A stretch of DNA of 64,000 bases from Rhizaria sp. SCN 62-66. Its lineage: Eukaryota. Shown here piece by piece: positions 2,172 to 54,926 of the stretch. The stretch covers positions 1 to 64,000 of the forward strand of contig MEDY01000031.1 in assembly GCA_001724265.1 (NCBI GenBank). Direction: 5' to 3'. Numbering within the stretch: the stretch's first letter is position 1; each line of letters begins with the position of its first letter. The notes under the pieces are model-generated. The model saw only the letters and a program-made list of their open reading frames with translations. It was not told where the DNA came from and did not search any database. Both the position numbers and the translations under genes were made by a program.

Positions 2172-2217
<46 letters not shown>

Positions 2218-12109: not shown

Positions 12110-12336
12110 AACGCACAGTAAGAAGAGACAGCAGCTGATGCGTAAGACGCGCAGATTGTCGAACTGCGCTGTGTCGCGCTGTGTTGCGCTGTGGGGACCG
12201 CAGCGCGTGACTGGGCAACAGACGCGACAGTCTGTTGCCAATAAAATTGCGAGAGTTAACAAAATTAACAAATACACAACCATTTGACCGATCTTGTACG
12301 TAAGGATCGAACACATGTGGATGTACAGAAGCGCGC

Positions 12337-15300
12337 TCAGATACTGCGCATGGGCTGCGAGCCGTGCTTGTAGACGGACCAGAGCCGCTGCACCTCGGCA
12401 CTCAGCGATGCGACCTTGGCGTTGAGCTCATCAATGCGTCCTTCACTGCTAGCGCCACTGCTGCTGCTCGCGGCGGCGGCGACCGACGCGGCGGCAATGG
12501 CCGCGGTGAGCCCGCGCGGGCTGGCGGCGGCGGCGGCGACAGCGGAGCTGGCGCGCTCGTACCGGTCGCGCGCGGCCGCCGGGTTCAGCGGCTCGCGCGA
12601 AACGCCCCAGCGCGCGGGCTGCAGCGAGCGCGCGGCGCCAGGCGGCGGCGCGGGGGCCAGGCTCGCGGCGGCGCCCGACGCGGCGGGCACGGGCGCGGCG
12701 ACAGCGGCGGCACTGATGGGGACACCAACCTCGGCGCCAATGCCGCTGTCGACGTCGTCGTCGGCGTCGCTGTGGTCGCTGCCGCACGCGGCCTCAGAGG
12801 CGGCCTCCAGCTCCATGATCTCGAGCACGGCGGACCGCAGCTCGCTTGCGCGCTGGCGGAACGCGAGCGCGTTGGACCGCTGTCGCCGGCCCTGACGCTG
12901 CAGCCACTCGCGCGCCAGCGTGCGCGCCGCGGCCAGCTGCGTCGCAGTCGGCCGCTCGCCGGCAGTCGCACAGCAAGCAGCGCTGCACGCCGCTGCCGCA
13001 GCGCCATCCTCCTTGGCGGGAGCAGCGGCTGCGCCAGCAACAGTTGCAGCGGCAGCAGCAGCCGCACCGGCGGCGGCGGCGGCGGAGCCGAGCTTCTTCT
13101 TGGTGCCCGCGAGGCCGGTGCCGGTGCCCAGGCGCGCAAACACGTCCGCGACGTCGTCCTCGGTGTAGACGCGCCCGTGCTCCAGCGCGGCCACGTCGCT
13201 CGCGGGCACAGGCGGGGGCGCCGCGGGGGCCGCGCCAGCCTTGACCGCGGCCGCGCGCGCTGCGGCGTCGCTCACGCCGGCAATGAGCGCGGTGTTGTGC
13301 GCGGCGCGGCGCAGCAGTGCGCGGTAGCAGTCGAGCGGCTCGTTGAAGTACGGCCCCTGCGCGGCGGCCGACGTCACAGCGCGGCGCGTAACGGGCGCTT
13401 CGCTGGTGTACGTCGCGGCCTCGACCGCGGCCGCGGCCTCGGCGGCGGCGTCAGAGCCGGGCGCGGCGGCCGAGGCGCGGCGCAGCAGCCGCAGCGTGCG
13501 CAGCCCGGCGCCGCGCTCGGCGGGCAGCGGCGTCTCGAGCCCGTGGTCGAGCGCGGCCGTGCTTACCGTCGCGGCGCCGCGCGAGCCGCCGCGGCCCGAG
13601 GGCGAGAGGCGGAAGCGCACAAGCAGCAACACGGCCTCGAGGAAGTCGGCACGCACGGAGCCGACGTCGCTGGGCGGGTGCGCGGGGTCGCAGCGCTGCA
13701 GAATGTTGTCGCGCAGCTGCAGCAAGTCCCCCACGCGCAGCGCGCAGAAGCGCCGCAGCGCCGCCAGCAGCCCCGCCTGTAGCGCCTGGATGTAGGGCTC
13801 GGAGAAGGTCACGGGCAGGAACGCCTCGAGCATCGACACGACGCGCATCGCGTTGGGCACGTGCCGGAACGCGGTCCGCAGCCGGAGCGCGGAGCCGGAG
13901 CGCGTGAGCGCAGTCGTCGCTGCCGCCAAGGCCGCGCGCGCCGCCGGCGAGTGCGACGGCGCCGCGCTCTGCTGCGTGGGCGAGAGAAACATCGACTGCG
14001 ACTGTGATGGAGCTTGCGATTGCGATTGCGGCTACGATTGCGATGTCACAGCGCCTGTTGCGGCGCTATCGTCTGTCTCCGCGTGCGTCGCCAGGCGGCT
14101 CCCCGCTGCGTCGATGTACGCGGGCACGGCGACGGGCGAGAGCACCACCAAGATCGGTGCGTCGCGCGAGGAAGGCTCTGAGGTCTGGCCAAGCGGCGCG
14201 AGCAGAGACTGCGTCAGCTCCGGCTGCGCCTGCGAGCCCACCGTGCCGACAGAGTCCGCGCCGGCCCCGGCAGCGGCGCTGGCGCCAGCAGCGGCGGCGC
14301 TTGCAGCAGCAGCAGCAGCAGCAGCAGCGGCCGAGGGCACGGGCACGAGCGAGAGGTCAGCCGCGGCCAGCGCGGCGGCCACGTGCGCCGCCGCGGGCGC
14401 GCCGACTTGCAGTGACAGCGACTGCAGCGGCGCGCTCCCATCAGAGGAGTTGGCATCGACACTCGCAATCGCACTCGCATTCGCGCTCGCGGTCGCGTTC
14501 GCGATCGTGCCGTTCTCGCCGCTCTCACGCGCGGCTTCGCAGTCGGTCATCGCGACCTGTCCAGCGACGGCGTTAACAGCGCCGAGGTTGCTGCCGCTGC
14601 CGGTGTGATAGACGCGGAGCGCGGAGGCAGACTCGAAGCCCCACTTGGACACGCGCACGAGCGCGCGGTCGAGCCGGCGCAGGTACCCCGCGGCCGCGGC
14701 GGGCGCGATGCACACGGCGCCGTTGTCCAGCGCCACGACGTCGACGACCGTGCGCGGGGCCGAGTCCGCGGCGGGCGAGCCAGAGAGCGCGGCGGATGGC
14801 GCGCAGGTCGAGGCCGCGGCGGTGGACGCGGCTCCGGATGGCTGCACAGACGGGACCGACAGCGCGGCCGACGGGGGTGATCGCGCCCCCGGTGCGGCGT
14901 TCACCGAGGCTGTCACCGAGGCTGTCGCCGCAACGGGCGCACGCGCTGCGTGCTGCGGCAACGTGGACGCATGCGAGGACGCGTGCGCGTGCGGGCGTGG
15001 CGTGAGCATCAGGTTGCCCGGATTGCCGAGGTTGTCGGCCACGAACGGCAGGCGGTCTGTGTAGTTGCAGAGCAGGTCCAGCGCGACGATGGCGCCTATC
15101 TGCTGCATTACGGATTCGCCTTCGGAGCGCGCCGCGGGTAGCCCCGCCACGGGCCGGTGCCGCTCGCAGCGCGGAGGGAACGGCGCGTCGGCTGCCAGCA
15201 GCGGCACGTGCGCGTCCGAGTCTGCCGCAGCGGCGCTTGTGTTCGTGGGGTCCCAGCCGGCCGGCGGCTGGAAGGGCGGCAGCGGGCGAAACCAGCGGCG

Positions 15301-15827
15301 CAGGCGTGCGGCGAAGGCGAGGTCGCCGGGGACGGCAGTGAGCACGCGGCCGCGGAGGTACTCCATCAAGATGACGTAACCCTGTCGAAGCTTGCCAGTC
15401 ACTTCGACGCCCAGCGCGTTCTGCGCCTCCGTCAGCGCCGACATAACCTCGGGACGCTCGGCCTTGCGGAAGAAGGTCATTACGGGCGCGCGCACGCCCA
15501 AGGCGGCGGCCAGATGAGTGGCGAACAGCTCGCCCATGAGCTGGATGGTGCCCTTAAGCACGACAGCACCGGGCTTCGGTCCTCCGAACTCGACGAACAC
15601 GACGCCTAAACAAGGCAAGATTGAGGCAATAACAGAATTGTAAGATGCAATAACGCATATAATTCACGAAACAGAGACGTATGCGTGTTATGGTAAGACA
15701 TACCTTGACTACCCTCGGCACTTTGGCCAATTCCAACAACATGGTTCCAGTCCAGGTCGTCGATGTCAGCTACGGGGGCGCATGAGAAGTCAAAGGCGCG
15801 GTAGACTCGTTCGGCCGGGGGCTCCAT
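12337..15827 (-). CDS. Actin-fragmin kinase (AFK) catalytic-domain protein, ~1130 aa, with one in-frame TAG at 14032-14034
   Basis: Exon 1 15827-15704, exon 2 15605-12337. AFK-like motifs SAEGSQGVVFV, VVLK, ELFATHLAAALGVRAP, ILMEYLRG, MQQIGAIVALDLLCNYTDRLP, GNPGNLML, VALDN lie before the TAG. AFK C-lobe-like helices (IQALQAGLLAALRRF, VRADFLEAVL) lie after it in the same frame. Terminal stop TGA. Confidence 0.85.
14032..14034 (-). other. In-frame TAG codon (candidate sense codon)
   Basis: TCG CAA TCG TAG CCG CAA TCG CAA TCG CAA; frame is open on both sides. Confidence 0.8.
15606..15703 (-). other. Spliceosomal intron of the AFK gene
   Basis: GTATGT...TTGTTTAG, AT-rich, phase 1; joins EGSQ-G-VVFV. 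Confidence 0.85.
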
Positions 15828-17325
15828 CCAGCAATCCACAACGGAATAAACAGCAACAACGCGTTGAGCGACTTGGAACTGTTTTCTATAGACACACGAG
15901 GAGGTAAGATTCGATTCACAAAGACGTCGCGTGTGAGTGTGAAGCCGGCTCACAAATAACTCTACATCTCTCTAGTCTGATCGTCAAAGCAAACAAGCGC
16001 CTAATATCCGTCACAAAACAGGCAGAAACATTCGAAACAGAATCTTATATCGAAGAAAATCGCGATTACACCCGACACTTAATGAGATAACAAGCAATCC
16101 AAGATCTAAACACACTCTCTGCATGGTTCCGAAAAAAGGAACAGAATTCTTGCTCGCATTTGCGCAAATAGCGGCCGCCTCATGGCCCGACTTTGACTGT
16201 CTTTGTTTTTCACACTCGCTTTATGCAATAGCATTGTGCTAGCGCTTAGTGGTTGTTCACATGATACTTAGTATTCTGTGAATATCTGAGCTTCATGAGA
16301 GACGGCTTTACCAGAGAATTTCGCTGCTTTGGCTGATCGATGTGAAGCTCGTCTACAAGAAGCGCGTTGACATTATTTTGTCCGCCTATGGGTGACAAGA
16401 TGTTCTCACATCACGCTGCCTTCTCCATTGTCATGCTCCCAGCACAAATTGGTGCGCATGAACATAGTTTGGTTTCTGTCTGATGCACAAATGCCCCTCA
16501 GACGCCCTCCTCGTTAGTGGTACGTCGCATCTGCGAGAGCATCTTTTGATCTTATTACCTCGTGTTGGGAATGATTATTAACACTATATACGGTAGACTT
16601 CAGAAAGTGTAGCTTGGCAACGTCCCGGCTTGTGTTGAAACTGTTCTTGTATGACCCTTCACATTCATTCCTTCATGGCATGCGAACATTTCCGACTCCT
16701 CAGCTCACCTAGTCTCATTCTCTTTCTTCTTGTTTCACATAGGTCTTCGACATGGCTCTCTATTGCCTTCTGACAAGGTTATTGTGACACGTATTCATTT
16801 CGCCAAGATAGATGTTTTCATTTTTTGAGCACCAATGGAGTTGTTTAATCAATACACATCTTTAGTTCAACCATGCAGCATGCTCCATACGCTTATTATC
16901 TTGCACATGACAATATCCCCATACACATGATGTTACAGTGTCGGTGATCAAGCAATCTCAATTGTAAATTACAAACCTCACTTAATTTTTGATTGTTTTC
17001 AGAAACCCGAACGAGTCTGCCTCCCGCAGCTTTTCCAACCGTCACGAGGAGTACAAGATAGGTGGCGTATGCTAAAGTTGAGTAAATGTTAGGATATGTA
17101 TTCATGTTCGTTGTTTTGACTCGCTACGCTTTAGTACACGCACATTATTCGTTGCTACATAGTTATCTTATTGTTTCATGTATCTTGATGGTAATATCCG
17201 TACTGATGTGACAGTCATGGCTCGAATGTCCGCTGCGGGTTGGTTTACTTCCAGCGTGAGTAGCTGAATGCAACACAACGTATTTCTTCCTTCAGTCAGG
17301 TCCATGCGTTCGATTCCAATTAAAT

Positions 17326-20300
17326 TTAGTTGCGATCTTGGCCCCGCACGCTGCGACGACGCCCACTTGCGTCAAAAGTCGACGCGGCGTCAGCATCAGC
17401 CTCAGCTTCAGCCTTGCCAGCAGGCGCGGCCGTCTCCGCGACCGCCTCTGTTGCGGTCGCCTGCGCGGCACCAGCCTTGTCAACCTTGCCCTTACCGGGC
17501 GTCTTGGCAGGAGTACTCTTCTTGGTGCTCTTGTTTGATGCGGCGGCCGCGGGGGCAGCGGGGGTGAAGGCCTCCGCCTCAGTTTCCGCCTCCGCAGACT
17601 CGGCGGAGGTGGGCGCAGCGGTGGCAGGAGCGGGAGAGGTGTCGACCCCACTGCGGCGCGTGCGGGCGTTGGTTCGAGGCGCAACACTGTCTGCCTCCGC
17701 ACTCGTCGCGCCATTCTCGGCCTCAGCAACAGGCACAGCCGCGGCCGCATCAGCAGCAGGTGCGACATTGTCCTCAGCGGCCGCATCGGCGGACACCGCC
17801 TCAGCATCGGCCGCGGCGTTCGCAGCTGCTGCCTCCGCGGCGGCGCGCCGAGCTGCAGAGGCCGCGGCGGCGCCTCCAAGCTTACGGGGCTTGGCGGCCT
17901 GGGCAGCCTGGGCCTTCGGCGGCAGAGCAGCATCCGAGCTTTCGTCAGTCATCGCTGCACCCGCAGCGCCCGCCTTCTCCAGCGCATCCGCTTGGGCGGC
18001 ATCATTGGCGGCAGCTGCCTCCTTAGCGGCGGCGGCTTTCTTGGCTTCCTGCGCAGCCTTCGCGGCTTGGGCGGCCTTGGACGCCTTAGAAGCCTTGCTG
18101 GCCGGGGTCTTGGCGGGCTTCACATCATCCGCCGCCTCCTCCGCCGCCGCCTCAGAGCCGGCTTCTGCAACGGAGCTTGCTACGCTCGCGGCAGCCTCGG
18201 CAATCTTAGCGCTGTTCTTGCCGGAAACCCTGAGCGGCGGCGCGGTCCCCGAGACCTCGGCTGCCACGGCTGCCCGCATTTCCTCGAACGAGAGCCCCGC
18301 ATAGGGGTCTGCCTCGGGCGGCGGGATCACCGGCGACGGCAACTCCGCCCACTGCGCGCGCGCGCGCTCGACGTTGCGCTCCAGACCGGGCAGCGTGTGC
18401 GACACGAAGTCGGGGAAGGCTAGCACCGCGTCGGAGAGCGAAACGTCTTCCTCTTCCTCCGCAGCAGCAGCACCGTCCGCTGCGCCCGCGGCGGGACGGG
18501 CACGCTTCACACGCGCCGCGCCGTCTTCACCATCCTCCTCGTCGTTCGCGACGGCGGAGGCGGCACCCGCGTTCTTACCGGCGGCGAGCGCGGCGCGGCG
18601 GCGGGCGAGCTGGCGCGCGATAGCGTCGTAGAGCTGGCCCTCGGCGGCGAGCTCGCGGACCGGCACTTCCAGCTCGCCGGCGCGCACCTGCAACGACGGC
18701 GCAGACACGTGGTACGGCGGGCCCGGCAGCAGGCGAGGCTCGCGGATGGCCGCGTGGCCAGTCTCGGTGCCACGCGGAATAACGCCACTGCCCAGGCGCT
18801 TCTTGATCGTGATCGTCAGCGGCATCGCGGGCGTCGCCAGCAGCGGCGCGTAAATACGGCTCAGCGCGTTGTCGCGCAGGCGCGCCGGGCCCTCGGCCAG
18901 CAACTCGCCCCCGCCCACATTGAACGACTGCGCCGCCGAGCTTGGAAGCGAGGCTCCGCTGGCGCTCGCATTCAGGCTCAGGCTAGCATCCGCGGACTCC
19001 TTGTCACCGTCATCGCCAGCAGATGAATTGCTGACCTGCTTATTAGCGCCAATCATGACTTCACCACTGCTCGGCGTCGCTTGAGCGTCTCCACTCTTCT
19101 TAACGGCATCGGTTTCCTTCGCAGCAGCGTCATCGTCGTCGTCGCCGTCGCTGCTGGAGAACTCGTCCTGGCAGTCGGAGCCCATGAAGTTGAGCATGCG
19201 AGCCGAGATCGTGTTGATGCGCAGCGTCACGCGCGGACCGCGCGGGAGTCCGTCGCGTGGGTCCAGCGGTGCCATGTCCACGGAGATCGGTGTACTCTCA
19301 TCCGCGTCGCCACTTGCGTCAAGCTCGGCGGGGGCTTCGGCGGCGGCAGCGGCCACGGTTGCAGCCTCAGCGGACGCAGCGTCAGCCGCACGCGTCGCAG
19401 CGCGCTCCGCGATGCGCTCTTCGCGGCTACGCGTGGCGTTTGCGCGCGCGGCCTCGAGGGCGCGCTCAGCTTCTTCGCAGGCCGAAGTCAACCCATAGCG
19501 CGCGGGCGCGTTGGGCGCGCGCGTGAAGGGCAGCGTAAGACGCACGCCACCCGCAGAGCGGAAGACGGGGTGCAGCGGCTCATTGTTCCAGCCCAAGTCG
19601 TCGACCGATAACACGTGCGATACGAGCGCGCGACCCGGCTGAGCCATGAATGCTGCGAACATGCCGCCTCCCACACTCTTAAAGGCGTTGCCGTAAATCT
19701 TTCGTTTCGAAAGCATCGCCGCAAAATAGGAGACCACGTTTGCGCGCACTGATAACTCGCCACTCGGATGCACCTGAGTACGTTCCTGCAGTTCAGCGAG
19801 GTTGGACTCAGCGTTTTCAATGGACTCTGCAGCTTCATCATCAATGTCAGTGTCATCTTCAGAAGTGTCACTGTCGTCACTGAGCGCGGCAGCGGCTGCT
19901 GCAGCCGCTGCCGGGCGCCCACGCGGCCTCGGACGCGCGTTCTCGGAGGCCGCGGCACTGGCGGGCGTGGCAGCGAGTGGCGCCGCCTGGTATGCGAGCG
20001 CAAGAGCATGGTTACATTTCTAGAACTCGCGGCGCTTCTCGGCGCTGACTTCCGGCGGGTAGGCGCGCGACTGACAGTTGACTGGGTCGGCGCGCTGGCA
20101 CTGCTGGCAGTAGAAAACCTCCAGGTCGCACTCGGCGGCGGCGATGGTGAGCCCCACGCAGCGCGGGTGGAACCAGCGCTCGCAGGGACCCTCGCAGCCG
20201 AGCAAGTGGTTGCCGTCCTCGGAGATGAGCAAGTCGTGCACGTCCACACTCGCATCAGTGACCTTGACCAGCTGCACGCCGCTGCCCTGCGAGCCGCAGA

Positions 20301-23300
20301 TGCAGAAGGAGGCCGCATCCTCGATGCCGGCCGCACCGGCCCCAGCCGCTTGCCCGCCCGCGCGCGCTGCCATGTGGCCTCCACGCGCTCCGCCGCGGCC
20401 GCCGCGCATCGCGCTGCGCTGGGCGGTGCGCGCGGCGTCGTTGTGGACGCGCGCCTCGACCTTGGTGATCGCGGCGTCGAGCGCGCGCCAGCACTGCTGG
20501 ATGAGCTTGCTCTTGGCGGGGTCGTTGGACTCTTGCGCCAGTGCCGCAGCGCGCGCCGCAGATGAATTGACCGAGCTGGCCGCGAAGAGCTGCTGCGCGG
20601 ACACGTACGGCGTCGTCGAGCGCACGCGGTAGCAGTACGTCGTGCCGCCCACGTACGGCACGCCAGCGGCGGCCGCGGCGGCGCGCGTTTCCTCCTCGTC
20701 GTCGCCCACCGCGGAAGCGGCGCCGGTGGCGGCAGTGGCGGCAGTGGCGGCAGTGGATGCGGTGGACTCGACTGTGTAGTCAACGCCGGGACCAAAGATT
20801 TGCGGCGGCAGTGGCACGCCCATCGCCATGAGCTGCACCTGCAGCAACCCGGGGCCGGCGTGGGCGTTGCCGATACCGGGCCGCAGCGCAGCGGCCGCGG
20901 CGGCGGCCTGCGCAGCATGGTCGGACGACTCGATGCCGTAGTTCATCGCTGTGGCCGACGCAGCCGCAGTTGAGCAGGTCTGCATGCAAGACAGCAAGGC
21001 ATGTGACAAGTTTTGCTGGATGCGCTGCAGCACTGGCGCCGGCGGGACAACCACGTTCGACAGCGGCACAGGCGCAGTGCCCGGCGGGGACGCCACGGCA
21101 GGCGGCGCAGAACCGGGCGGGGCCATTGACTCGGGCAGCGGCACGCTATGCGTGCGGTGGAGCTGCTGCGCGTGCTGTTGCTGCAGCTGCGTCAGATGCG
21201 CTTGCTGCTGGCGCTGCAGTTGTTGCGCGCGCGCGTACTCAGCGTAGGCCGTCAGGACCGCGGCCTCGTGGCGCCGCTGGCGCTGCATGGCGGCCATGCG
21301 CGCAGGCGGTGACCGCAGCGCAGGGGCAGCGTTGCCGCTCATGGTCGCGGCGCCCATGCTGTACTCGCTCATCCCAGTCGTCGCAATGTTGCCTACAAGC
21401 AGGTTGTACAGCGCGCGCGCACGCGCCTTGTTGTTGGCGAGCGTCTGCGCGTTGAGCTCGCGGTGCAGAAGCATTAGCTCGCACGACACCATGTCGACGA
21501 CGGTGCCACCGCCGAGGCTGATCGAGGCCGACGTCGTCGCACTGCCCGCGGGAGTCACAGCGCTGTCCTCAACCAAGGTGCTCACAACGCGCGCCACTTC
21601 GCGCACGCGGTCGTGCTCCGCCTCGACGACCAAACGGCCGCCGACACTCGTCAGCGTCTCGGCGCGCGCCAGCGAGCTCACGCCTGGAGTCGCCGCCCCC
21701 GCGGCCGGGAACGGCAGCACGTAGCGCTTCGCCTTGAAGCGCTGACACATCTCGACGATGTCGTGCGTCGACGGAATACGCGCACGTGCGCAGAAGGCCG
21801 TTGCCAGCGCGGCGGCCGCAATGCGCACGCGGCGGCGGATAAGGCGGGAGAGAGCCTCAACGCGGCCACCGCTCTGCGTAGCAAAGGAACGCAACAGTGC
21901 AGTCTCGAAGGTTGCCTTGATGAAGCTCACGTCGGCGCCCGCGAGGCCACCAATGCGCGCATTGATGGCGTCAGAGCCGACGGAGCCTGCCAGCGCAGCA
22001 CCGTGGGCGCCACCGGCAGCGACCGCCATCTGCATCGCGGCGCCGAGCGGCAGCGGGCCGTGCACCCACCAGTAGCCGGGACCGAAGGCGTGCAGCGCGG
22101 CCAGCGGCGGCAGCGGGTGAAGCGAGGGCGGGTGGCGCAGCGCAAGGCTCTTGACACGCAGCGCCTGCAGCACCGAGTGCGGGCCCGGCGCAACAAGAGG
22201 CACCGCGTCGGTGACAAGGCCGGAGCCAGTGACGGCGCCTGCGATCGCGGCGGGCTGCGAGGCAGCGACGCCAGCGGTCTGCCGCGCCAGCGCCTGGAAC
22301 ACGCTCACGGGCTGGAGCACCGTGCCGGGCACGTACTCGAGCCCCGGCGCGGGAGACGCGTCGCTCTCAAGCGAGACAACAGCACCTGAGCCGGTGGCGA
22401 CGGCTTCGAAGCTGACCGCAGTGGCAGTTTCAATCGCGTTCACCGTGCGCTGAAGCAGTTCGAAGGCCGTCTTGCGCCAAGGCGCACCGTGAGGGCCAGG
22501 GTCGAGAGACGCGATCAGGGCAGCCGCCTCGCGCGCGTCACCGTTTGCGGGCGCGGCGCCAAGTCCGAACACGGGGCGTAGGGCAGCGGGCACGCAGTCG
22601 CGCCACAAAGCGGGCTCATTTGCGGTGCCCAACACAGCAGACGCCGCCGAGAGCGCGGTGGTCACGGTCTGCGAGGCACTGGCCGGCAGCGCGATAGCGC
22701 CTCCGACGCTGCCATCAACCATGGCCGTTGCTAGGCGAGCGCGCTTGGTGTCCTCAGGTCCGACCGTAGCCGGTGACCGCTTGATCTGAGCAGTGGCGCT
22801 GTGCTGGCGCTGCCACATGCGCTCGACAGCGGCGGCGCCCTCAGCCAGCGTCACGAGCGGACTGGTATTCGCACCCAGTGCGGCGGCCGCGGCGGGCGCA
22901 GAGGCCGCGGCTACGGACGACGACACGAGGTGGCTGATCACGGCAGACACACAGCCGGAAGCCGTGGCCGACACCGACGGCAGCGTGCCCTCGGGGTTCG
23001 CGGCGGCCTTCTCGGCGATCACGGCGGTCTCAGCGCGCGCGCGGCCGCGGGCGAGCGCGGCAGAGGCAGCGACAGAGGCACGAGTGTTGAATGCCGTGGT
23101 GCGCGCCGCTGCGGCAAAGGCGGCCCAGCGCAGTCGACGCGGGCTCAGAAGCGCTTCGAGCGCGCGAGGCAGCATCGGACCGGAGCGGCGCGCATGAGTG
23201 ATCGGCGCCATCAACGCACAGACGTGCGCGAGCGACGGCAGGTAGCAAACGCCATCCTCGGCCGCGGTGGGCACAGCGGGGTCTTCATCCTCGTCTTCGC

Positions 23301-26300: not shown

Positions 26301-29300
26301 GGTCGTCGACGGCGCGCACGCGGCCCGCGGCGACGGAGTCGTAGGTGCCGCTCGCGAAGTTGCCCGACACGGGGTCGAACGGCGCGCGCGCCACCACTGT
26401 CGCAACGGGTACCGCAGCAAGCTGATCATCGCCCTCAGTCGGGCTCGCAGAAACAGGCGCGGCGGAGTCGGCGCGCTCGCGCCACACGGTGCCGGAGTAG
26501 ACGACGTCGTCGACGCCGTTGCAAAGGCCCATGGCGGGCGTCACCGTCCCCCACGACTTGGATATCTGGTAGGGGTCAGTTGAACCGGACGCGGCACCAG
26601 AGGCAAGCGCAGCCGAGCCTGCGGGGCCGACGAGGTGGAGTCCGACGGACAGCGCCGTCGGCATCGTCATCACCGATGTGCTCGACAACATACGCGCGGA
26701 CGCCGTCGCCTTTACCGACGCAGCGGGCACCAGAACCGAGCCGCCGGGCGCGGCAGCGGCCGCAGAGTCGTCAGTCTCGTCGGTCTCAGCCGCAGCGGGG
26801 GCGGCGCGGAGAGTCGCCTGGGCCGCGGTCGACACGGTTTGTAGCGCCGTCTTGGACGTTGAAAACGTGCACGCCTCGAGCAGAGCGCCCGTGACCTGAT
26901 CCAGAGTCTCAAGAGAGCGAGGCACGGGCACCGCACCGGCCTCGGTGCCAGTGGTTTCAGCTGCCTCAGTGGCCGTGGCAGCTGCCGCGGCGGCCGTCGA
27001 GAGCGCGACACGCATCGTGTCATAGACCTGGGAGATAGAGCTCACGGCCAGCAGCGGCATCAGCGACGGCGTCTGCGCGGGACACACAGCCGAGCCCGCG
27101 CCCAGCAGCGACGCTGCGGGCAGCAGACTGCGCTGTCCCGCCGCCAGCATCGCCGCGCGCGCGCGGTCCACTGGCGTCACCGTGGGCACAGGGGCGGCCG
27201 CGGGCTGGCGGCCGCGCGGCTTGCCCGTCGACGTCGTGGACGCGACTGAGGCCTTGATCGTGTCGAGCTCAGCCGATTCAACCGGGCTGTCCATCATCGA
27301 GACCCCAGCTGGGCCGGGCGTTGCAGCGCCGCTCTCGGAAGCGCCGGGCGCCAGGCCCAACGCGGCGAGTTCGGTGCGCTTGATGGCGCGCTCGCGGCGG
27401 GCCATCGCAGCGCGCGCGCGCAGGTGTGCGTGGAAGCGGCCCCAGAAGTCGACGCGCGCCGTGGTGACGGGCGCACCGAAGGTGTGCGGCGCCGTCAGCA
27501 GAGACGAAATGCCAGCCGCGGCGGCCGCTGCCGAGAAGGACACGGGCGTGCACAGCGAGGGCGGTGCGAAGAGTGCGCGCGTGAAGTTGGTGAGCCTGCG
27601 TTTGCCGATGCGCGAGATCTTGCCGTCATAGCGCAGCGAGCGCAGTGAGAAGTAGGGCCGCAGCGGCGCGCGGATTTCGCGCTGCAGCAGGTGCGCATGC
27701 TCGTGCACAAAGTGCACAAGCGCGGGCGACACCGGAAGCAGCGCACGCATGTATCCGGCCAGCGTGTCCCAGTGCGGCATCAGCACGTTCGCGGCACGCT
27801 CGCGCTCCGCATCGGCGCGCGCCGTGTCGGTGTCGAGCTCGGTCACGCCGCCCGCGCCGGAAGGCACTACTGCGCTCATTGTCGCGGCAGTCGCCGCCGC
27901 AGCGGAGGGGTCAAAGCGCCCATTCGCGCCCGACGTGGCGCGCGCGGCCTCGGCCACGAGCGCAGCGAGAGCGGACGGACTGGCAACAGCGCCATCAGCA
28001 CAGCTGGTGGAGACAACGCCAGCGGGCGACAGCGTAACAGAGGCGCTGGCTGCGTCCCCGTCGGCCATGGCCTTGGGCGTGATCTCGACCCAGATCGAGG
28101 CCGAGTACGAGAAGGGCGTCGCCAGCGGCGGGCGCGGAATGCGGTCGAGCGGGTGCGCGAATGCGCCCACTTCGTCCTTGACCGCGCCGGCGTCGTTATC
28201 ATCGTCGGCCATGCGCACGGCAGCGCCGGCGGCCGCAGTGGCTGCGGCGGCGTAGGGGTTCTGGTCGCGCAGCGGGCGCGCGGCCACGACGGAGCGCAGC
28301 CCCACCGCGCCCTCGGCGCCCACCAGCGCGGGCGTGGCGCGCGTGGATACGGCAGTCTGCAGCGCCGAGGCGAGGTCGGCCGTGCCGCGCTGCAGCGGCA
28401 GCATCGGGTTCAAGTGGCCCTGCGCGACGGCGCTGAACACCTCGGCCGTCTCGCCCGCCACTTCGCCCGCGGCGGACGCCTCCTCCTCCGCGCGCGGCGG
28501 GAAAATGAGGCCGGCCACGGGCAGCAGCCGCACGCTGCCGCTGGCGACGCCGAGGCCAGCGCCGCCGTTGGTGACGGCAGCCGCGGCGCCGGGCGTCATG
28601 CCCGCGCGCACAAGGCGCTGCCCAACGGCTGACGCCGAGCCGGTCTCGAGCGCGCCCGCGGCGTTGGTGCCCGTGACGTTGATGCGGTCCGTCAGCAGCG
28701 TGTGCGCGGGCGCGGAGCCCATCGGCACACCCAGCGCGGCCGTCACCGACGCAATGGACTGGCGCACCGCGGCCGAGTCATTGGCCGCGGAGGAGTCGTC
28801 AGCAACACAGGGTGAAGCAGCAGCAGCGTCACCGTCGATTGCGAGACTGGTTTGTGCGACGGGGAGAAGCACATTCGCGGCGGTGCTGTACTCGTTGCCC
28901 TCGAAGACGCCCGTGGTGGAGACGCCGTTAGCGACGTGCCAGGCGTGCGGCTCGGGCACGGCGCCGCCGAAGTTGGCCAGCACGGGGTCCATGGCAAAGC
29001 GCGGCGCACCGGGCGCGCGCTCGGCGTCGGGCGCGGACACCGCCAGCGTCGCCGCGGGCACGGGCGCGGCGCCGCTGACGTTCTCGCGCGCCAGCCGCGC
29101 GTCGAGCGCGGCGGTGAGGTTCGTCGAAGAGAGTCCGAGCAGCGAGCCGAAGACGCCCGCGGCCACGGCGGCGGGCTCGTGGCGGCCGCCGACCAGCGAG
29201 GCCACCGTAGCTGCCGCCGCACGCACGGACTCGAGTCCGGCGCTGACCTCGGGGTTCACGCCGCCGTCGCCGCCCGCGCCGTGGCCCGTGCCCGCGCCGA

Positions 29301-32300
29301 CGCTCGAGGCGTTGGAGCTGGCGCGGCGGCCGGAGCTGGCGCCACCGCCGACGGCCGCGGAAGCGGGGCCTGGGGCGACGTTGAGGCGCGAGGCGGCGGC
29401 GACGACATCGGCCGTGAGCGCCTGCTCGGCCCACACCTTCCGGTAGTGGGCGCCCAGCGGCGGGATCACGACCTGGCCGGGCAGCGAGGGCGTCATGATC
29501 TCGATCAGGCCGGGCGACAGGGCCAGCCGCGCGTCAAGCGCTGCGGCGCAGGTCATCGCGCCGGGTCCGTGGCGCGCGCACACGCCGTTGCACTCGCTGC
29601 CGCAGCCACCGACCGCGGAGTCGGGCAGCGTGGCCTCGGCCGAGGCGTTGAGGAAGCGGCGCTTGGCACGGCGCAGCAGGCTGTGTACGAGCAGACGACC
29701 CTGCTTGGCCGTCGTGTCGTGCGCCGCGGCCAGCGCCACGGCGGCGCCAGCGGCGGCGTGCGCGGCGCGCGGGTCCGCGGGGTCCCTTGCGGCGCGCGCG
29801 GCGGCAATGGCGGCGCGCGTGACGGCGTCCTGGGCCGCGTAACCGAGCGCGGTCTCCTCCTCGGAGTCGGACACGGCGCGCGGAATCGAGGCTTCGCTGC
29901 TCATCGTCACCAGCGGTGGGCGCGCCACGGCGCTGGACGCGATTGCGGGGAAGCCGGGCGCAACCAGCGCGGCCAGATAGCTTGCCGCGCCGCCGTCGCT
30001 CTGCGCAGCCGCGGGGCCCGTGGCAGGCCGCCCGATCTTGTTGCGCGCCGCAGCCGCGGCAGCGCCCCGAGAGCCGCCACGGCCACCGTTGCGCATCATC
30101 CCGCGCCCGCGGCCGCGACCGCCGAACTCCTTCATGTGCGCAAACGCGCGCTGGCGCATGGTGACCTCGCGCTCGGGCTCGCCGCTGGGCCACAGCGCGG
30201 CCTCCTCCTCGGCCTCAACCGGGGCTTCGCCGGCGCTGCCGCCGCGGGGACTCGCGCGCGCTCGGGCGCGGGACTCGTCGTGCTAGTCTACCATGGCGTG
30301 GGCGGACCTGTATCCGTCGTCCTCGTCGTCGTCGGACATGCCAAGCTTGCGCCCCGTGGACGCGCCGGGTCGCCCGTTGGCGCGGGCACGCGCCGTGGCG
30401 CTCGCGCGCACCGCCCGCGCGGCGGTGGCGGCCGCTGCGGCAGAGGCGGATGTGACGCGGCGGCCGTTCGCGGTTGCCTTCTCTGCAGCAGCGAGCGCAG
30501 CAGCGGCGACCTCCTCGGCCTCGGCGAAGGCGTCGTCCTCCTCTTCCTCGTTCAGCAGCGTGTCGGCGCGCGGCAGCAGGGCGGCGACGGCGTGGGACCG
30601 CGCCAGGTCCATGCCGGCCTCATCCTCGGATGGGCTGGCGTCGCCGGCCATGAGCAGCTGCGAGCGGCGCATGGCGTGCAGCCGGCGGCGGCGCGCGTGG
30701 GCCGTCTCGCCGGGCAGCGGCGCCGTGAGCGCTGCGAACGTCGCGGTTGGTGGCGGCGGCAGCAGGTCGAAGAGCTCCTCCCAGGCGAAAAAGGGCTCAA
30801 AGTGGGCCCAAAACTGCTCGGCCGACTCTGCGCTCTCTTCGCTCTTGCTCACGTAGCCCGTGGGCAGAGGCACGCCGTTGACACCCGGCACCGTGCACGT
30901 CGAACCCGCGAGCGAGGCGTCGTGCGCGGCCGCGGCCGTGGCGGCGGCGGAGGAGCCCCGCGCCGTGGCGGGCGCCATCCAGGTCCCGCCAAGCACCAGT
31001 GCATTGCTGTTGGCGCCGGCAGCGTTGCCGGTGGGCGTGGAGTTGGCGCCCGGGACTGCGGCGGCGCCCGTCTCGCCCGCGATGCCCATGGTGTCAAGCG
31101 CGGCGAGCGGGTGCGCACCCGCGGGCCGCGGCAGCAGCGACGTGAGGCCGCCCGAGAGGTAGTCGCAGTTGGAGGTCCAGGTGAACTCGTCGGCGCTCGT
31201 GCGCGGGCCGCGCAGCGTGCGCGCGGCGCGGTGCTGGCGCACGAACTCGTTCTGGCGCTGCACCATCTGCTTGGCCGAGTTGGCCGCGATGTCCCAGCGC
31301 ACGATCGCGGCGTTGAGCGCTGCGGCTGCGACGGATACGCCAACGCCTGGCGTGCGCCCGCGCTTGACGCCCGCCTTCGCGGCCTTGGCCGCCGAGACGC
31401 TGTTGCGGCCGCCGCGGCCGCCGCGGCCGCGCTGCGAGTCACCGTCGGCGTAGGCCGAGGGCCGACCCGCGGTGCAGTCCTGGCAGGACCAGTCGCCGCG
31501 GGGCACCTCGGAGACCTTGACGCAGAGTTGGTGGAACGCGAGACTGCAGGGCCCGTCGCAGAGCATAATGGCGTTGCCGACGACAGACTCGCCGCCGCCG
31601 CAGACGGCGCAGACCCAGTCGTCTTCGTCGTCGTTGTCACCGTCGGAGCCATCCTTGTCGTCGGGCTTGGCGGGCTTGGCCTCGCCCGCGGCGCCCGCGG
31701 AGAGCCCGCGCATGGAGGCGCCGGAGCCGGCTGAGTCGCCCGCGGCCGTCTTGCCCGCGGCGGCGCGGCCCTGCAGCTGCGCGTCGCTAGGCGGGTCTGT
31801 CGACACCGAGGGCTTAGGCACGCGCGCGGGCGCGGCGAGCTGCTGCGGGTCGTAGATCAGCACAGTCATGGACACGTTGGTCACGAGCGACAGCAGGAAG
31901 CACTGCAGCGAACGCAGGTCCGGCAGCAGCGCGCGCACATACGCGGGCGCCACAGGGGCTTCTGCCGCCGCGGTGTTGGCGGCCGCGGCCGAGGCGGCGG
32001 CGGCAGCGGCGTCAAGCTCGGCGGCCCGGAGCGCGGCCTCATCAAACGACGCCGAGGCTGAGGCCATGATGAAACTGTCCGAGGCCTCGCTGGGCGCACC
32101 GGGCGGCGCCAGCACGGGCGTCGTGAGGGCCGCGCTGTCAGCCGCGGACGCCGCTACCGCGCCCGTGCGCCCGGCGGCCTCGAGCATTGCCGCGCGCGCG
32201 CCCGCGACGACCCACGTGATGTGGCGTAGAGCGTCGAGAGTCAGCGGACGGTACTTGCCGGGCGCATCCGCCTCAGCACTCGCCGCACTGGCGCCGGCGT

Positions 32301-34614
32301 TCGCAGAGCTGCCTTCGGAGCGGGGGTCGACGGCGTCGGCGAGAGAGGCAAGCGCGGCCCAGGGCAGCAGCGCGGCGGCGGTGAGGTGCGAGAGACAGCC
32401 CTGCGCCGAGAGCGTGGCGTAGGGCGCGGGCAAGTACACCGGCGCGGCCGTGCCGGGCGTGCCCAGCACCACGGCCTCGCCGGGGCCAAGCTGCCGCGCC
32501 GTGGGCGTCATCAAGCGCAACGCGGACGGCGGCGGCGGCGCGGGTGCGGACGGGGACGCAGTGGGGCGTGGCGGCGGCACCAGCGTCTGTGCGGCGGCGG
32601 CGGCGCGCACGGCAGCGGCGGCACTGGCCTTGTGCGACTTAGCAGGAGCCGCACGCTTGGCGAGCTGCTGCTGTTGTTGAACAATTTGGTTTTGCTGCTC
32701 AAACCTTGCGGCAGCACCAGCGGACGCGGCTTGAGTGGCGTTAAGTGCAGCTGCTGCGTTGCGCTGACGCTCAGCCACTTGTTTCCGCAGCGATTCGTCA
32801 TACTCAGCGCGACTTGCGGGGTCCATCGATCGCACAGCTAAGCGGTAGTGCGAAATCTCGCGCTCGCATGATGCGATCGTATTTTGCCGGGTCTGCGCGA
32901 AATGCGCGCGCATCGCCTCCATCTCGGCGGCGTGCTCGACCTGCATCTGCTGCATCCGCGCGTGCAGCTGCGCGGACGACATCGTCGCGGGCCGGCGCGC
33001 AAGGTCGTTGCGCGCGAGCGTGTGCTGGTGCTCCATATAGGCCCGCTGGGTGGTCCAGTCGCGCTCAACCTGCTCCACAGCGCCGCGGAGGTAGGCCATC
33101 ACCTCGTCCGGCACAATTGCGGACGAAGCATCATGCACCTGCTGCTGTTGCTGCTGCTGCATCAGATCCGCGTCCGTCATTGCGATCGGTCCGCCGACAG
33201 TGGTTGCGGCTGCGACCGTGGCTTCTGTTGCTGACGCTATTGCTGCGTCCGAGTTGCGGGCAGGGGTGACTGCGGCGGCTCTGTGGAGGCCCGCAAAGCC
33301 GTTGACGCGGCGCGAGCTGCCGCGCGCGTGTCGGCGCGTCTCGCCCGTCTCCGTGGGCACGGCCGCGGCGGCGCGGACGCCGGCCTGCACCGCGGCGCGC
33401 ACGCCGTCGAGCGCGCGCGGCGGCACGCGGTCGCGCGGCGCGGGCACTGAGAGTCCAGCAGTCAACGGGCCGGGCGGCAGGTCTGCGGCGGCGGCGGCTG
33501 TGGCGGCGGCGGCAGCGGCGGCGGCGCCCATGCGCGCGAGCTCGGCGTCGATGGCGGCCTGCGCGGCGGCCTCGGCGACGGCGTCGACTCGCAGCAGCGG
33601 CGACAGCGGGCGCTCAGGCGGGCGCGCGCGCGGCCCCCACGAGGGCGCGATGTACTCGGCGGGCTCGGGCGCGAGCAGCTGCGCCCGCACCAGCGCCGTC
33701 TCAGCCGTGAGCGAGAAGTCGTGGTCCCCGCCCGGCACACGAGGGGTCCCGTCGGGCGCGAACTCGAAGGCGAGCTGGAGCCCGCGGGGCAGCTCGGGGA
33801 GCTCGCGCTGCACCGAGAGCGCGACGAGCCCGGAGGATCCCACGGCCGCGGTGACGCGCGTGAGCGTGGAAAGCACCGAGATGACAGCCGCTGACAAGGC
33901 GCGCGGGGCGGCGCCGGCGGGGCGCGTGGGCGCCAAGGCGGCCGCAGGCGCAACACCTGAGCGCTGTTGTTGCTGCTGTTGTTGCTGCTGCTGCATCTGC
34001 TGCTGCATGTGTTGTTGCTGCTGCATGAATTGTTGCTGCTGCTGTTGTTGCTGCTGCTGCCACTGCTGTGGAGGTTGTTGCTGCTGTTGCTGTTGTTGCT
34101 GCGACCAGTAGTGTTGGTGCTGGTGCTGCTGCTGGTGTTGCTGCTGCTGCCAAGGCTGCTGTTGCTGCTGGTACGGCGCCGCGGGGCGACCTGCGTTAGG
34201 GACGGCCGCAGCTTGGGCAGCGCCCGCACCTGCGTAGTTGGCGTGCGCGTAGCCCGTTTTAGCGTGAGCGGGGTGGCCACCGGGAGGGACAGTCGAAGGG
34301 TAGCTACCCGTCGCAGCGGTTGCGGGATAACCATAGCCAATGGAAGCCGCCGCTGCGGGATACGTGTCATGGCCGTAGCTGTGGCTGGGGCTGTGACTGG
34401 GAGCGGCGCTGTGTTGCCCGTAGCCGTAGCCGGAGGGTTGAGCGTTGTAGCCTTGAGGGGCTTGGGTGGGGACCTGGGCAGGGGCGTAGTAGGGGCCGGC
34501 CGGGGGCGCATTTTGAGGCACAGCGGGAACATCGGAGGCTGCGGTTGTGTATGACGTCGCAGGTGGCGCGGGCGCACCGTATTTAGACCCGCTGGGGTCG
34601 CTGTTAGGGAACAT
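17326..34614 (-). CDS. Giant chromatin-associated protein with two PHD fingers and Ada3/TADA3-like motifs (~5762 aa if TAGs at 30283 and 20020 are read as sense)
   Basis: Track ORFs 30283-34644, 20020-30159 and 17326-19773 share one frame and are separated only by single TAGs plus open GC-rich codons. PHD1 CAVC..CDGPC..FHQLC..WSCQDC (~31473-31612). PHD2 FCIC..CEGPCERWFHPRC..FYCQQC (~20098-20304). Ada3-like FWAHFEPFF (~30800) and IPPLGAHYRKVW (~29450). N-terminal poly-Q; terminal stop TAA. Confidence 0.75.
20020..20022 (-). other. In-frame TAG codon (candidate sense codon)
   Basis: CGC GAG TTC TAG AAA TGT AAC CAT GCT; the same frame continues to TAA at 17326. Confidence 0.7.
30283..30285 (-). 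other. In-frame TAG codon (candidate sense codon)
   Basis: ATG GTA GAC TAG CAC GAC GAG TCC; the same frame continues for more than 3400 codons. Confidence 0.75.
33964..34170 (-). repeat. Mixed CAG/CAA poly-Gln tract
   Basis: Visible (TGC/TGT)n on the + strand; Q-rich N-terminal region of the giant protein. Confidence 0.9.
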
Positions 34615-34643
34615 CAGGGGGCGGGAGTGCGCGTTTGCCACCA

Positions 34644-34724
34644 CTAAGATGGGGAGCGGACCGGGTGACGGGCGGGCCGGTCGGGGGTCAGCGAAGCAAG
34701 TATTTACGAAAGGAGAACAATTAC
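34644..34724 (-). other. Probable 5'-UTR intron of the giant PHD gene
   Basis: CAAG|GTAATT donor and ATCTTAG acceptor 29 nt before the ATG; the upstream exon frame is closed by TGA. Confidence 0.45.
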
Positions 34725-36945
34725 CTTGTTGAAAAAACCTTCACACCCAAGAGGAAAAGAAAAAAAGAGATCATGTGAGAGTGTCGTTGTGTAGGATGGC
34801 GTTAAGGGCGGCGGACCGCGGTTGATGCTTAGGGGTGAGATGGGAAGCGTCCAAACAGTCAAGCAAGACAGCTATGGGAGATTTGAGAAATAGAACTCAA
34901 TATTTGTGTAGAAACGTTGTCTTTGTGTTATTTCGACAAGTAACAGCTGATATACAGCAATTGGGCGGCCCTCTGGACGTGGAAAATAGACTGGCCGACC
35001 CTTCGAGCCAGAACGAGTTGATTCTCTACAGAAGAGACTTGATCGTCAAAGACGCGGGAGATTAGCCAAGCAAAGAGAAACATCAAATTCGTAAACAAAT
35101 CATTTTATCGTTTCCCAATAAAATGCGTCTATCTCGCTGCTGTCGTGTTTTCCGTTTGCCACACGGCGCGGCCAGGAAAAGTTAAGCCGCATATGAGGCA
35201 AACGCCGAAGGGCCAAGCCCGACTTTGCGAGTTTTGAAACAACGATGCTTTGATGATTTAATTTAAGAAACTCATTCAGAAGATCGTATAAGATCCAGAT
35301 GCGTTGCGCTTTTTTAAGATAATAATAACCAGAGGCCACGCGATGGGAAGCAATCATAATTTTGTCGCCTGACAGGCGAGGTCCGCGTAACGACAACGTC
35401 CTTAGTACAGTTCCGATTTTAGGGCGCCAATAACGCGATTTCATGCCACATACGCTCATTTAGTAGCATTTATTACTTTGAACTTGAATCAAAATCGATC
35501 GGCCGCGTATGAGAAGGCTACATCACACTTTAGTCACATTCGCGTTCTGGAGTCACGGAGAGCTCCTTCGCTTGCCCTCCCCGACCATGCATATTGATGC
35601 AATATTGTTGATATATGTTTCTTAAAAAGATTATAATATATAACCTACACAGGATGTGTTGCTAGTATCTTTATTTTTACAATCACATTCTGTTTTAAGA
35701 CGTGGTTGCTTCGTGATTCAATTTAGGCGAAGGCTGAGTCACAAGCCAGGCCCATGGTCGTTCACTTTCAGATTAATCGCTCGACATCAAAGTGGACCAT
35801 TGTAGATATGAAAGCAACTTATTGTGGTATTCCCATGCAGTACCGCTCAATTAAATTATCGTTAACGGACTAACATGCTGTTTTGAATCAAATCTACAAT
35901 CATTGCTGGCGAACGGTCAAGATTTGCCTCTGTTGATCAGTTTCTATAGAGCCTGTAGCGATGAATCGATTCACAAACTCTAAAATAAATCATTTGATTA
36001 CAAGGTATTCAAACGCTATGCAGCCGTTCTAAATTCAATCCTTTTTCGACGCCCAAACATTACGATCCATGTCTCGATTCAATTCACACGCTCCTGACCG
36101 GCATCTCCGCCTCGTTGACTCTGACTCACCCAAGTCATCATTACCAACGCAGACAACATATTCACACGTAATACTACATGAACAATAACACAAGCTTAGC
36201 GGATTCACCATGGTTGGTTTCTTTCATGCAAGACACTGCTGTTGTTCGAACTCTCAACGGGCAATTTCGGCCGTACAGTGTGACCGACAACACGACTCGA
36301 GGTTTCTCGTAGCGTGCGAAACAAGGCAGAAATCCACCAAAAAAGGTCATTATTACCCAAAAAACAATATGAAACTATGCACTGTTGCACGCACACAAGC
36401 AGTTGTAACAATCGTGCGATGTCGCCTCACTTGTGTACAGGGGCCATCCGCAGTGACGATGCATGTGACGCAATGCAGGACCCCCCCCTCCCCCCCAATG
36501 GCACTTCACACACGGGTTCAAGACACAGCGACAGTAAAGCGTTGTACAGACATGTATAATATGTCGACCCACCTCAATCCCCTGGGGGGCGAGTGAACGG
36601 GCAATACAGCATGGATGAGCTTTTGTGGCACTCATTGACGGTGCGACGACCCCCTTGAAGCAAAAGCGGGATTATTTCAATACCAACAGGACATTCCGAC
36701 AATAGCATTTTGGGATAATGCCATAAATGCATTATGATTTCAGAATTAAAGCATGCCGTCTCCACTTGGCATGTTATTGAGTCCATTCGATGAACTTTTC
36801 TAATCGCAGCTCCCAGAACCCATAGTGGGTTAGGTTAGGTGAAGGGCTTGAAGAAGGTGAGTGTATCTGCACACTCTGATCGTCAGTTCTTGTTTAAGCC
36901 CGCATTTTTGCTAATTCAAGCTCCATTTATTATTCACTTATAATA

Positions 36946-54860: not shown

Positions 54861-54926
<66 letters not shown>

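Follow-up and report, generated by a model that had tools for sequence, protein, structure and literature searches.

Three in-frame TAG codons in two adjacent genes of a GC-rich wastewater eukaryote: possibly an early UAG-only stop-to-sense change

The stretch of DNA analysed here, a 64-kb region in the following called the window, raises the question whether TAG still acts as a stop codon in its organism, as two long coding sequences run through this triplet three times. In nuclear codes, UAG has become uncoupled from UAA in only a handful of lineages, as far as the excerpt of PMC11687900 reports. The window probably represents nuclear DNA of a wastewater or bioreactor eukaryote with few introns and very GC-rich exons. 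If the TAGs are sense codons, a lineage in which UAG is gone from gene ends yet almost unused in frame would show stop-codon capture and make it possible to test directly if termination is lost before a dedicated tRNA appears; to our knowledge, all UAG-uncoupled lineages were described when UAG was already in common use. If the TAGs are premature stops, the finding is ordinary.

The three in-frame TAGs claimed in the original prediction were located in two genes, as stated there, all on the minus strand (Table 1); ORF 12337..15663 holds one and ORF 17326..34740 holds two, both ORFs being free of internal TAA and TGA. Upstream of TAG no. 1, gene 1 encodes an actin-fragmin-kinase-like domain (PF09192, E 8.6e-12; PDB 1cja, E 2.1e-07) and downstream of it a helical region followed by a coiled-coil tail. 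TAG no. 1 itself stands at a Q position in a repeat that alternates [S/P/A] with Q (CAA TCG TAG CCG CAA TCG CAA TCG ...). The product of gene 2, which contains TAG no. 2 and no. 3, is Ala/Gln-rich and carries two PHD fingers. The 3' contexts differ, as had been stated, and read CCG CAA at site 1, AAA TGT at site 2 and CAC GAC at site 3. All three sites lie in poorly conserved or low-complexity sequence, and two of about 12 genes are affected. Sites 1 and 2 lie in patches of low local GC (percentile at site 2, 0.02-0.04), with A/T-ending codons unusually frequent in the 10 codons after TAG no. 2; around TAG no. 3 the local composition is ordinary. A first search returned no orthologue spanning any TAG site, and neither did a second one, whose 13 matches comprised the window's own two ORFs and 11 matches to the PHD finger only.

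Table 1. Positions of the genes, in-frame TAGs, introns and gene ends considered in the window
Feature	Position	Strand	Description
Gene 1	12337..15827	-	Exon 1 15827-15704 (starts ATG), exon 2 15605-12337 (ends TGA)
Gene 1 intron	15703-15606	-	98 nt, GTATGT..TTTAG, AT-rich
TAG no. 1	14032..14034	-	Actin-fragmin-kinase-like gene (gene 1), inside ORF 12337..15663
Gene 2	17326..34614	-	One open frame, 5763 codons, ATG 34614 to TAA 17326
TAG no. 2	20020..20022	-	Giant PHD-finger gene (gene 2), 20 codons past second PHD finger
TAG no. 3	30283..30285	-	Giant PHD-finger gene (gene 2), acidic/Ala-rich stretch
Reference intron	51576..51831	+	256 nt, GC 0.44, GTACGT..CAG
Reference intron	55523..55703	+	181 nt, GTACGT...TTTTACAG, AT-rich, poly-T tract
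Six TAA gene ends	1858(-), 12107(+), 17326(-), 38086(-), 50320(+), 60586(-)		Control set
Six TGA gene ends	9201(-), 12337(-), 37788(+), 52093(+), 56042(+), 59851(+)		Control set

For the assessment of coding potential on either side of the TAGs, frames were scored by GC3 periodicity and with a codon model that had been trained on the remaining genes of the window. At all three sites the frame of the TAG scored best both upstream and downstream; the frame signal was weak only for about 30-90 nt (+30..+90) downstream of the TAG at 20020. An unbiased six-frame scan covered 558 stop triplets with 80 open codons upstream, 17 of which had a positive upstream coding score. After the TAA or TGA triplets that follow coding sequence (14/14) the score dropped to strongly negative values (-29 to -108), while the corresponding TAGs (3/3) were followed by positive ones (+8 to +16), the values upstream and downstream being +11.1 and +11.6 in the same frame at site 1, +6.5 and +16.4 at site 2 and +8.6 and +8.1 at site 3. 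Were the TAGs true stops or intronic, the probability that all three sites kept the frame would be P = 1/27.

The gene ends of the window give the same picture. The claim that all 12 are TAA or TGA and never TAG agrees with the six-frame scan, which yielded 11 of them, and with the ORF list, from which the twelfth (12109 TAA, lowest base 12107) was taken; the control coordinates, ranging over 1858..60588, denote the lowest base of each stop codon. TAA and TGA terminate six genes each and TAG none. With TAG assumed to make up 20-30% of stops, the absence of TAG ends has P = 0.07-0.014 in this small sample. Also borne out is the absence of internal TAA and TGA, with neither triplet and no change of frame in the 16,376 codons of nine coding segments.

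It is very improbable that the TAGs are true stops of separate, densely packed genes, five instead of two, or that they are assembly errors. Prokaryote-style gene callers do split the ORFs at the TAGs, P0126 (3379 aa) stopping at TAG no. 2 and P0127 beginning 91 codons past it, and an in-frame ATG lies 18 codons downstream of TAG no. 1 (at sites 2 and 3 the first one lies 91 and 42 codons downstream). Yet the same-frame coding signal is unbroken at 3/3 sites, for which chance would give P = 1/27; it begins well before any in-frame ATG at sites 2 and 3; and none of the sites has an AT-rich spacer comparable to the intergenic DNA elsewhere in the window, which measures 0.2-2 kb at about 45% GC. 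Assembly errors are contradicted by identical TAGs in independently built contigs. X2/X3 DNA contigs from the Logan collection cover TAG no. 1 (12687-14251), TAG no. 2 (18876-20125) and TAG no. 3 (28448-31289) with no difference, and the exact 3379-aa ORF between TAG no. 3 and TAG no. 2 is recorded from four contigs. The TAGs are thus real DNA. X2 and X3 resemble one data set, and the concordant assemblies may share one bioreactor population; no cover of the TAG sites by independent or RNA runs was found among the matches listed.

Typical spliceosomal introns at the TAG sites were rejected, as neither donor nor composition resembles the three real introns of the window, which are AT-rich, start with GTAYGT and measure 98-256 nt. 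The intron at 51576..51831 does contain a TAG that is in frame with the following exon, and ordinary splicing removes it. The neighbourhoods of the three in-frame TAGs have a GC content of 0.57-0.74 and no GTAYGT-type donor; a donor-like hexamer within 400 nt upstream exists at one of the three sites only, a GC-rich GTGCGC. Codon model and intron comparison therefore agree with the original prediction in that the TAGs are flanked by open coding sequence lacking a spacer, a frameshift or a typical intron. Taken together, separate genes, ordinary introns and assembly errors are poor explanations because of the continuity of frame, the intron comparison, the recurrence of the same TAGs in other assemblies and the lack of frameshifts and internal TAA or TGA.

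A related idea, that the TAGs disappear at the RNA level before translation, whether spliced out with short in-frame introns of an unconventional, GC-rich kind or edited from UAG to CAG (U-to-C), appears quite improbable. GT..AG pairs with a length divisible by three can be drawn at site 1 (48/54 nt) and site 2 (63 nt), the two sites that are locally GC-poor, but the candidate donors GTGACA, GTCAGC and GTCCGC are unlike GTAYGT, and the candidates lack a pyrimidine tract and are far shorter than the real introns. At site 3 the GT..TAG spans of 25, 34 and 55 nt are out of frame and the in-frame spans of 9 and 18 nt far too short for an intron; three in-frame introns would moreover have P = 1/27. 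The TAGs are flanked on either side by X5 polyA-RNA contigs, and none of those listed bridges a site. One of them, 29824-30282, stops one base before TAG no. 3, exactly where an acceptor ending in ...CTAG would be located; at a depth of 2.6 it is plausible that the contig broke off by chance, and no splice joint at the TAG sites occurs among the matches listed.

UAG could also be a normal terminator genome-wide that is subject to programmed or leaky readthrough at these sites, giving short and long isoforms, or the TAGs could be the true protein ends, with only occasional translation of the downstream ORFs. Such an explanation, which we regard as improbable, would fit the great rarity of in-frame TAG, the atypical, often A/T-ending codons after TAG no. 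2 and the position of this TAG just past a complete domain, the second PHD finger. It is at odds with the three 3' contexts, which share no stimulatory motif. Readthrough is known from contexts such as UAG-CARYYA and stop-CUAG, neither of which is matched by any site. The extensions would show full codon bias and run to 564, 897 and 3420 codons, for which we know of no precedent, and TAG terminates none of the 12 local genes.

The question remains how often TAG is used and whether mutation alone could have placed it there. In-frame TAG is about 50-fold depleted, with 3 observed against 148 expected from position-specific base composition, which corresponds to about 0.18 per 1000 codons (3 in 16,376) and to 3 of 620 putative Gln codons (0.5%); for comparison, the codon pair TTG:CTG stands at 92:644. 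Both caveats raised beforehand apply: the pure poly-Q tracts of the window contain no TAG, and no nonsense change arises more easily than CAG>TAG. Of the point mutations that could create a nonsense codon in these genes, 70% lead to TAG, so that three nonsense codons would all be TAG with P ~0.34 under a mutation-only model.

These figures bear on a standard code in which the TAGs are premature stops, either recent loss-of-function alleles in a dominant reactor clone or one haplotype of a heterozygote, with downstream sequence too young to have decayed. Taken as a whole we consider this unlikely, though a possibility of some weight. In-frame TAG is avoided nearly as strictly as TAA and TGA, the proteins concerned evolve fast, are of low complexity and gave no orthologue in the searches, and the agreeing assemblies may be a single population. 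The three sites are also not fully independent because, once the first TAG has truncated gene 2, the second would be neutral. Between populations the divergence is about 0.06%, with seven scattered SNPs in the 20 kb compared; the six coding SNPs downstream of the TAGs in the 2025 runs versus the window comprise two synonymous and four non-synonymous changes, which looks like little constraint, at low depth and n = 6. On the other side, premature stops would require that at least two of the 12 neighbouring genes had been knocked out independently and that a secondary hit had followed. In decaying genes indels usually outnumber nonsense changes; here frameshifts, TAA and TGA are all absent from the 16,376 codons and the downstream coding scores are positive, although a very young allele would likewise keep its codon bias and lack other lesions. 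As only 2.1% of point mutations are nonsense, the observed divergence predicts fewer than one nonsense difference between populations even under neutral evolution. Finally, premature stops leave the lack of TAG among the 12 gene ends unexplained (P ~0.01-0.07).

With coding sequence continuing past three TAGs and no nearby gene ending in one, the organism may therefore read TAG as an amino acid. Of the single explanations, a UAG that does not terminate here accounts best for the in-window tests, because coding runs on at 3/3 sites, TAG ends none of 12 genes, typical introns, frameshifts and internal TAA or TGA are missing, and the TAGs are reproducible. We somewhat favour the reading that UAG is decoded as an amino acid, probably glutamine, and that genes end at UAA or UGA only, which is formally equivalent to NCBI table 15. 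Glutamine is the probable residue because one TAG stands at the Q position of an X-Q repeat. The number of sites, three, none of them at a conserved position informative for the amino acid, counts against reassignment. The original prediction of a reassigned but rarely used UAG is supported in part, namely in what it predicted within the window, while the roughly 50-fold depletion is unlike established UAG reassignments.

Regarding the mechanism, we infer that the three UAGs are decoded by ribosomes, most likely as glutamine, that UAG would be ineffective as a terminator and that UAA or UGA alone would end translation. A low-abundance suppressor or near-cognate tRNA might compete with a weakened eRF1; the window contains no eRF1 gene, no tRNA gene (ARAGORN) and no Rfam match. 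Because UAG is so rare, the reassignment could be young, or else costly and ambiguous. UAG would already have been lost from gene ends and would now be starting to reappear inside fast-evolving genes, so that the window might offer a snapshot of a codon-capture or ambiguous-intermediate stage in a lineage recurring in public metagenomes and polyA metatranscriptomes. Possibly a new, early-stage UAG-only reassignment, the locus is a promising lead. The more specific description, a GC-rich non-ciliate eukaryote of wastewater reactors with an early UAG-only stop-to-sense change, probably to Gln, with in-frame UAG at about 2% of the frequency allowed by composition and termination by UAA and UGA, is offered tentatively. 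Wastewater metagenome catalogues would mis-annotate such an organism, because standard or prokaryote-style gene calling splits its genes at TAG, as for P0126 and P0127.

Comparison with known systems, as far as the cited excerpts describe them, places the locus as follows. Premature-stop alleles and young pseudogenes under the standard code share with it the rare, isolated stops of the easiest type in dispensable-looking, fast-evolving genes; they differ from it in the absence here of frameshifts and of TAA or TGA, in the clustering of three TAGs in two adjacent genes and in the 0/12 TAG ends. The green alga Scotinosphaera (UAG=Ser, UAA still a stop, as cited in PMC11687900) is a non-ciliate with a UAG-only change, as the present organism would be if UAG is reassigned here, but nothing algal is evident in the window and Gln suits the site 1 repeat better than Ser. 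In the rhizarian exLh, where UAG encodes Leu, 71 genes contain 384 in-frame UAGs, which cluster at conserved Leu positions, and its termination codons are exclusively UAA (56) or UGA (15) (PMC5304391). The six TAA and six TGA ends of the window form a similar pattern, with UAG apparently uncoupled from UAA, whereas the window has three sites, all outside conserved positions, and the one informative context points to Gln and not Leu. UAG=Gln with UAA and UGA as stops is described for Iotanema spirale (Fornicata), Protocruzia tuzeti and some phyllopharyngean ciliates (PMC5304391, PMC11687900). In contrast to these lineages UAG is hardly used here, at 3 of 16,376 codons or 0.5% of putative Gln codons, and the host appears to be a GC-rich non-ciliate with long contigs and fungal-style GTAYGT introns; in common with them, only UAG occurs in frame, the local ends are UAA or UGA and one TAG stands where a repeat leads one to expect Gln. 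The combination of in-frame UAGs with ends that are all UAA or UGA matches the published UAG-only reassignments, as the excerpt of PMC5304391 presents them.

The three in-frame TAG triplets are located in both genes exactly where the original prediction had placed them, and the caveats attached to them (only three sites, no TAG in the pure poly-Q tracts, CAG>TAG as the easiest nonsense change) were correct as well. Nine coding segments with 16,376 codons in total contain three in-frame TAG but no TAA, no TGA and no frame change, which bears out the claimed lack of internal TAA and TGA. Gene ends are composed of TAA (6/12) and TGA (6/12), and TAG is absent (0/12). A codon model derived from the genes of the window itself was used to score coding. 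At all three sites the TAG's own frame was the best frame, so that coding continues in the same frame on both sides, and the score dips only by the cost of the TAG itself and in a weak patch 30-90 nt 3' of TAG no. 2, in which six of ten codons end in A or T. Additionally, all stop triplets of the six frames were scanned with the requirement of 80 open codons upstream. This yielded 558 triplets, 17 of which had a positive in-frame upstream coding score. After TAA or TGA the score fell to -29 to -108 in 14 of 14 cases (11 gene ends, two first stops inside introns and one marginal antisense match); after TAG it was +8 to +16 in three of three.

Features of the window discussed in the text
Feature	Position	Strand	Remarks
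TAG no. 1	14032-14034	-	gene 1 (actin-fragmin-kinase-like), inside ORF 12337..15663
TAG no. 2	20020-20022	-	gene 2 (PHD-finger giant), inside ORF 17326..34740
TAG no. 3	30283-30285	-	gene 2, inside ORF 17326..34740
Structured-looking region after TAG no. 1	13540-13899	-	
Structured-looking region after TAG no. 2	19100-19750	-	
Cytidine-deaminase-like gene	9201-10040	-	small, multi-exon, TGA end at 9201; motifs only
M1 metallopeptidase gene	38086-42633	-	closest relative 65% identical
Neighboring Gln-rich gene pair	50823-52095 and 52405-56044	+	similar last exons

The TAGs are not credible as stops of separate genes, because at TAG no. 2 and TAG no. 3 the coding signal begins far ahead of any in-frame ATG (the first lies 91 codons after TAG no. 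2 and 42 codons after TAG no. 3) and no AT-rich spacer is present at the TAG sites. Typical introns are excluded too: the neighborhoods have 57-74% GC and contain no GTAYGT donor. Three spliceosomal introns could be read directly in the window (98, 181 and 256 nt); they start with GTATGT or GTACGT, are AT-rich, carry pyrimidine tracts and end with YAG. Short GT..AG pairs of 9-63 nt can be drawn around the TAGs, with the donors GTGACA, GTCAGC and GTCCGC, and were rejected as introns, since donors and lengths are unlike those of the organism's real introns. A contig of depth 2.6 from a polyA RNA run of 2025 (29824-30282) stops exactly one base before TAG no. 3, with no loose end shown; this end could be due to chance, to a variant at 30283 or to a splice acceptor or RNA-processing boundary. 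Removal or editing of the TAGs at the RNA level is considered very improbable. Site-specific readthrough, against which the original prediction had held the differing 3' contexts (CCG, AAA and CAC, all confirmed), is a little less remote and still quite unlikely.

Logan contigs of two DNA runs, which look like one data set, span all three TAGs with no differences. The exact 3379-aa ORF bounded by TAG no. 3 and TAG no. 2 is on record from four contigs and the ORF downstream of it from three; contigs carrying these genes in the source assemblies measure 113 kb and 91 kb. An assembly error is unlikely because the spanning contigs and the recorded ORFs agree, although the agreeing assemblies may all derive from one reactor population. 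Among the rows listed for the independent 2025 runs (activated-sludge DNA and polyA RNA), no variant, joint or loose end occurred at the three TAGs, which carries no weight either way. Taken as one alternative, separate genes or an assembly error can hardly account for the TAGs.

The window consists of two phases: long stretches of 70-77% GC, in which GC3 is ~0.82-0.9 and a periodicity of three bases is clear, alternate with 0.2-2 kb at ~40-50% GC. Long ORFs rich in Ala and Gln make up the GC-rich stretches, and the domains found in them are eukaryotic (PHD fingers, actin-fragmin-kinase-like, UFD1_N1, Aida_C2 and M1 peptidase). Over the whole window, exons have ~72% GC and a GC3 of 0.82 vs ~45% GC in introns and intergenic DNA, and TAA makes up half of the gene ends despite the GC pressure. 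Logan contigs from metagenomes of bioreactors, wastewater and activated sludge also contain the DNA of the window, and part of it occurs in a polyA metatranscriptome. Based on the introns, the eukaryotic domains and these contig sources, the window is nuclear DNA, and it comes from a eukaryote with few introns that lives in wastewater reactors. The small cytidine-deaminase-like gene carries the motifs CPYSKYPV... and ...CGACRQFLREF...LPDSFGP, and its last exon alone had no match in Pfam. The last exons of the Gln-rich pair (...FGISAARVDAIPAPLRWSLL... and ...GFGVSPDCLDAIPPLLWWALL...) are each preceded by an AT-rich GTACGT intron, and the two genes look like tandem paralogs.

Compared with positions 12300-32200, the two 2025 runs showed only ~7 scattered differing positions in 20 kb, and therefore the same species is present again in reactors whose sampling dates lie a decade apart. 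An extra cluster of differences at 26026-26049 may belong to another sequence. Protein-cluster look-ups revealed no variant strain; one entry, P0140, is an identical sequence that starts with GTG. The closest relative of the M1 peptidase is a single protein of 1410 aa (P0005) on a 9.7-kb JGI metagenome contig, and thus at least one related species is present in public metagenomes. The other matches have ~40% identity and are scattered over eukaryotes and Planctomycetota; of 36 pattern matches to the M1 peptidase domain in a scan of genome contigs, none was confirmed.

The homolog search with the read-through product of gene 1 gave no match among 8000 candidates. A query of 567 aa surrounding TAG no. 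2 yielded 13 matches (E <= 0.001) among 1.8 billion protein representatives, two of them the window's own ORFs and 11 covering the PHD finger only; neither search found an ortholog spanning a TAG site. PDB 1cja matches cover the pre-TAG part of gene 1 only, its post-TAG part had no match in PDB and no usable one in the ESM Atlas, Pfam found nothing in the ORFs after the TAGs, and a single-sequence AlphaFold model for gene 1 reached a mean pLDDT of 38.4. A kinase fold split by TAG no. 1 is thus not demonstrated by Pfam, PDB, ESM Atlas or this low-pLDDT model. Shortly after TAG no. 1, and likewise after TAG no. 2, lies a structured-looking region. Both were without a match in Pfam or PDB, and the one in gene 2 matched only the window's own ORF among the 1.8 billion representatives; they are putative orphan domains. 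No tRNA genes or Rfam families were matched in the window.

By mutation only, the TAGs would be recent premature-stop alleles. From these codons 70% of all possible nonsense point mutations give TAG, so that three TAGs in a row have a probability of ~0.34. In-frame TAG is moreover depleted ~50-fold (three seen vs 148 expected from position-specific composition; TAA 0 vs 24, TGA 0 vs 21), all three sites are in poorly conserved sequence, and of six SNPs located 3' of the TAGs four change the amino acid. TAG no. 1 takes the place of a Q in a repeat in which [S/P/A] and Q alternate (S Q S * P Q S Q S Q A P S Q S Q S), and this is compatible with TAG coding for Gln as well as with a CAG>TAG mutation. 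However, nonsense makes up only 2.1% of point mutations and the divergence between populations is ~0.06%, and neutral evolution therefore predicts less than one nonsense difference in the window. The TAGs are also not accompanied by any frameshift, TAA or TGA, and independent knock-outs would be needed in at least two neighboring genes. If TAG normally accounts for 20-30% of stops, its absence from all 12 gene ends, left unexplained by mutation only, has P = 0.07-0.014. Premature-stop alleles are therefore judged unlikely, albeit the most serious of the alternatives.

Decoding of UAG rather than termination is the best-supported explanation, and we rate it somewhat above even. If true, the amino acid is most likely Gln and the decoding most likely young or inefficient. 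The original prediction of a nuclear code with UAG as an amino acid and UAA and UGA as stops is partly supported, by the in-frame continuation at the three sites and the lack of TAG ends; the depletion speaks against it. The three in-frame TAGs are a strong lead, and a variant code is not yet evidenced.

None of the papers found in our literature searches describes a GC-rich eukaryote from wastewater that has UAGs in frame. In the sections of two reports dealing with such codes (PMC5304391, PMC11687900), UAG encodes Gln in Iotanema spirale, Protocruzia tuzeti and some phyllopharyngean ciliates, Leu in the rhizarian exLh and a phyllopharyngean, and Ser in Scotinosphaera; in an oligohymenophorean ciliate UAA and UAG are both reassigned, the former to Lys and the latter to Glu. 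For exLh, 384 in-frame UAGs in 71 genes are given there, with 56 UAA and 15 UGA ends (PMC5304391). As far as these sections describe them, the known UAG-only reassignments have the same kind of pattern as the window, with UAG alone in frame and UAA and UGA alone at the gene ends, but the window differs by its very low UAG usage and by a host that is clearly not a ciliate.
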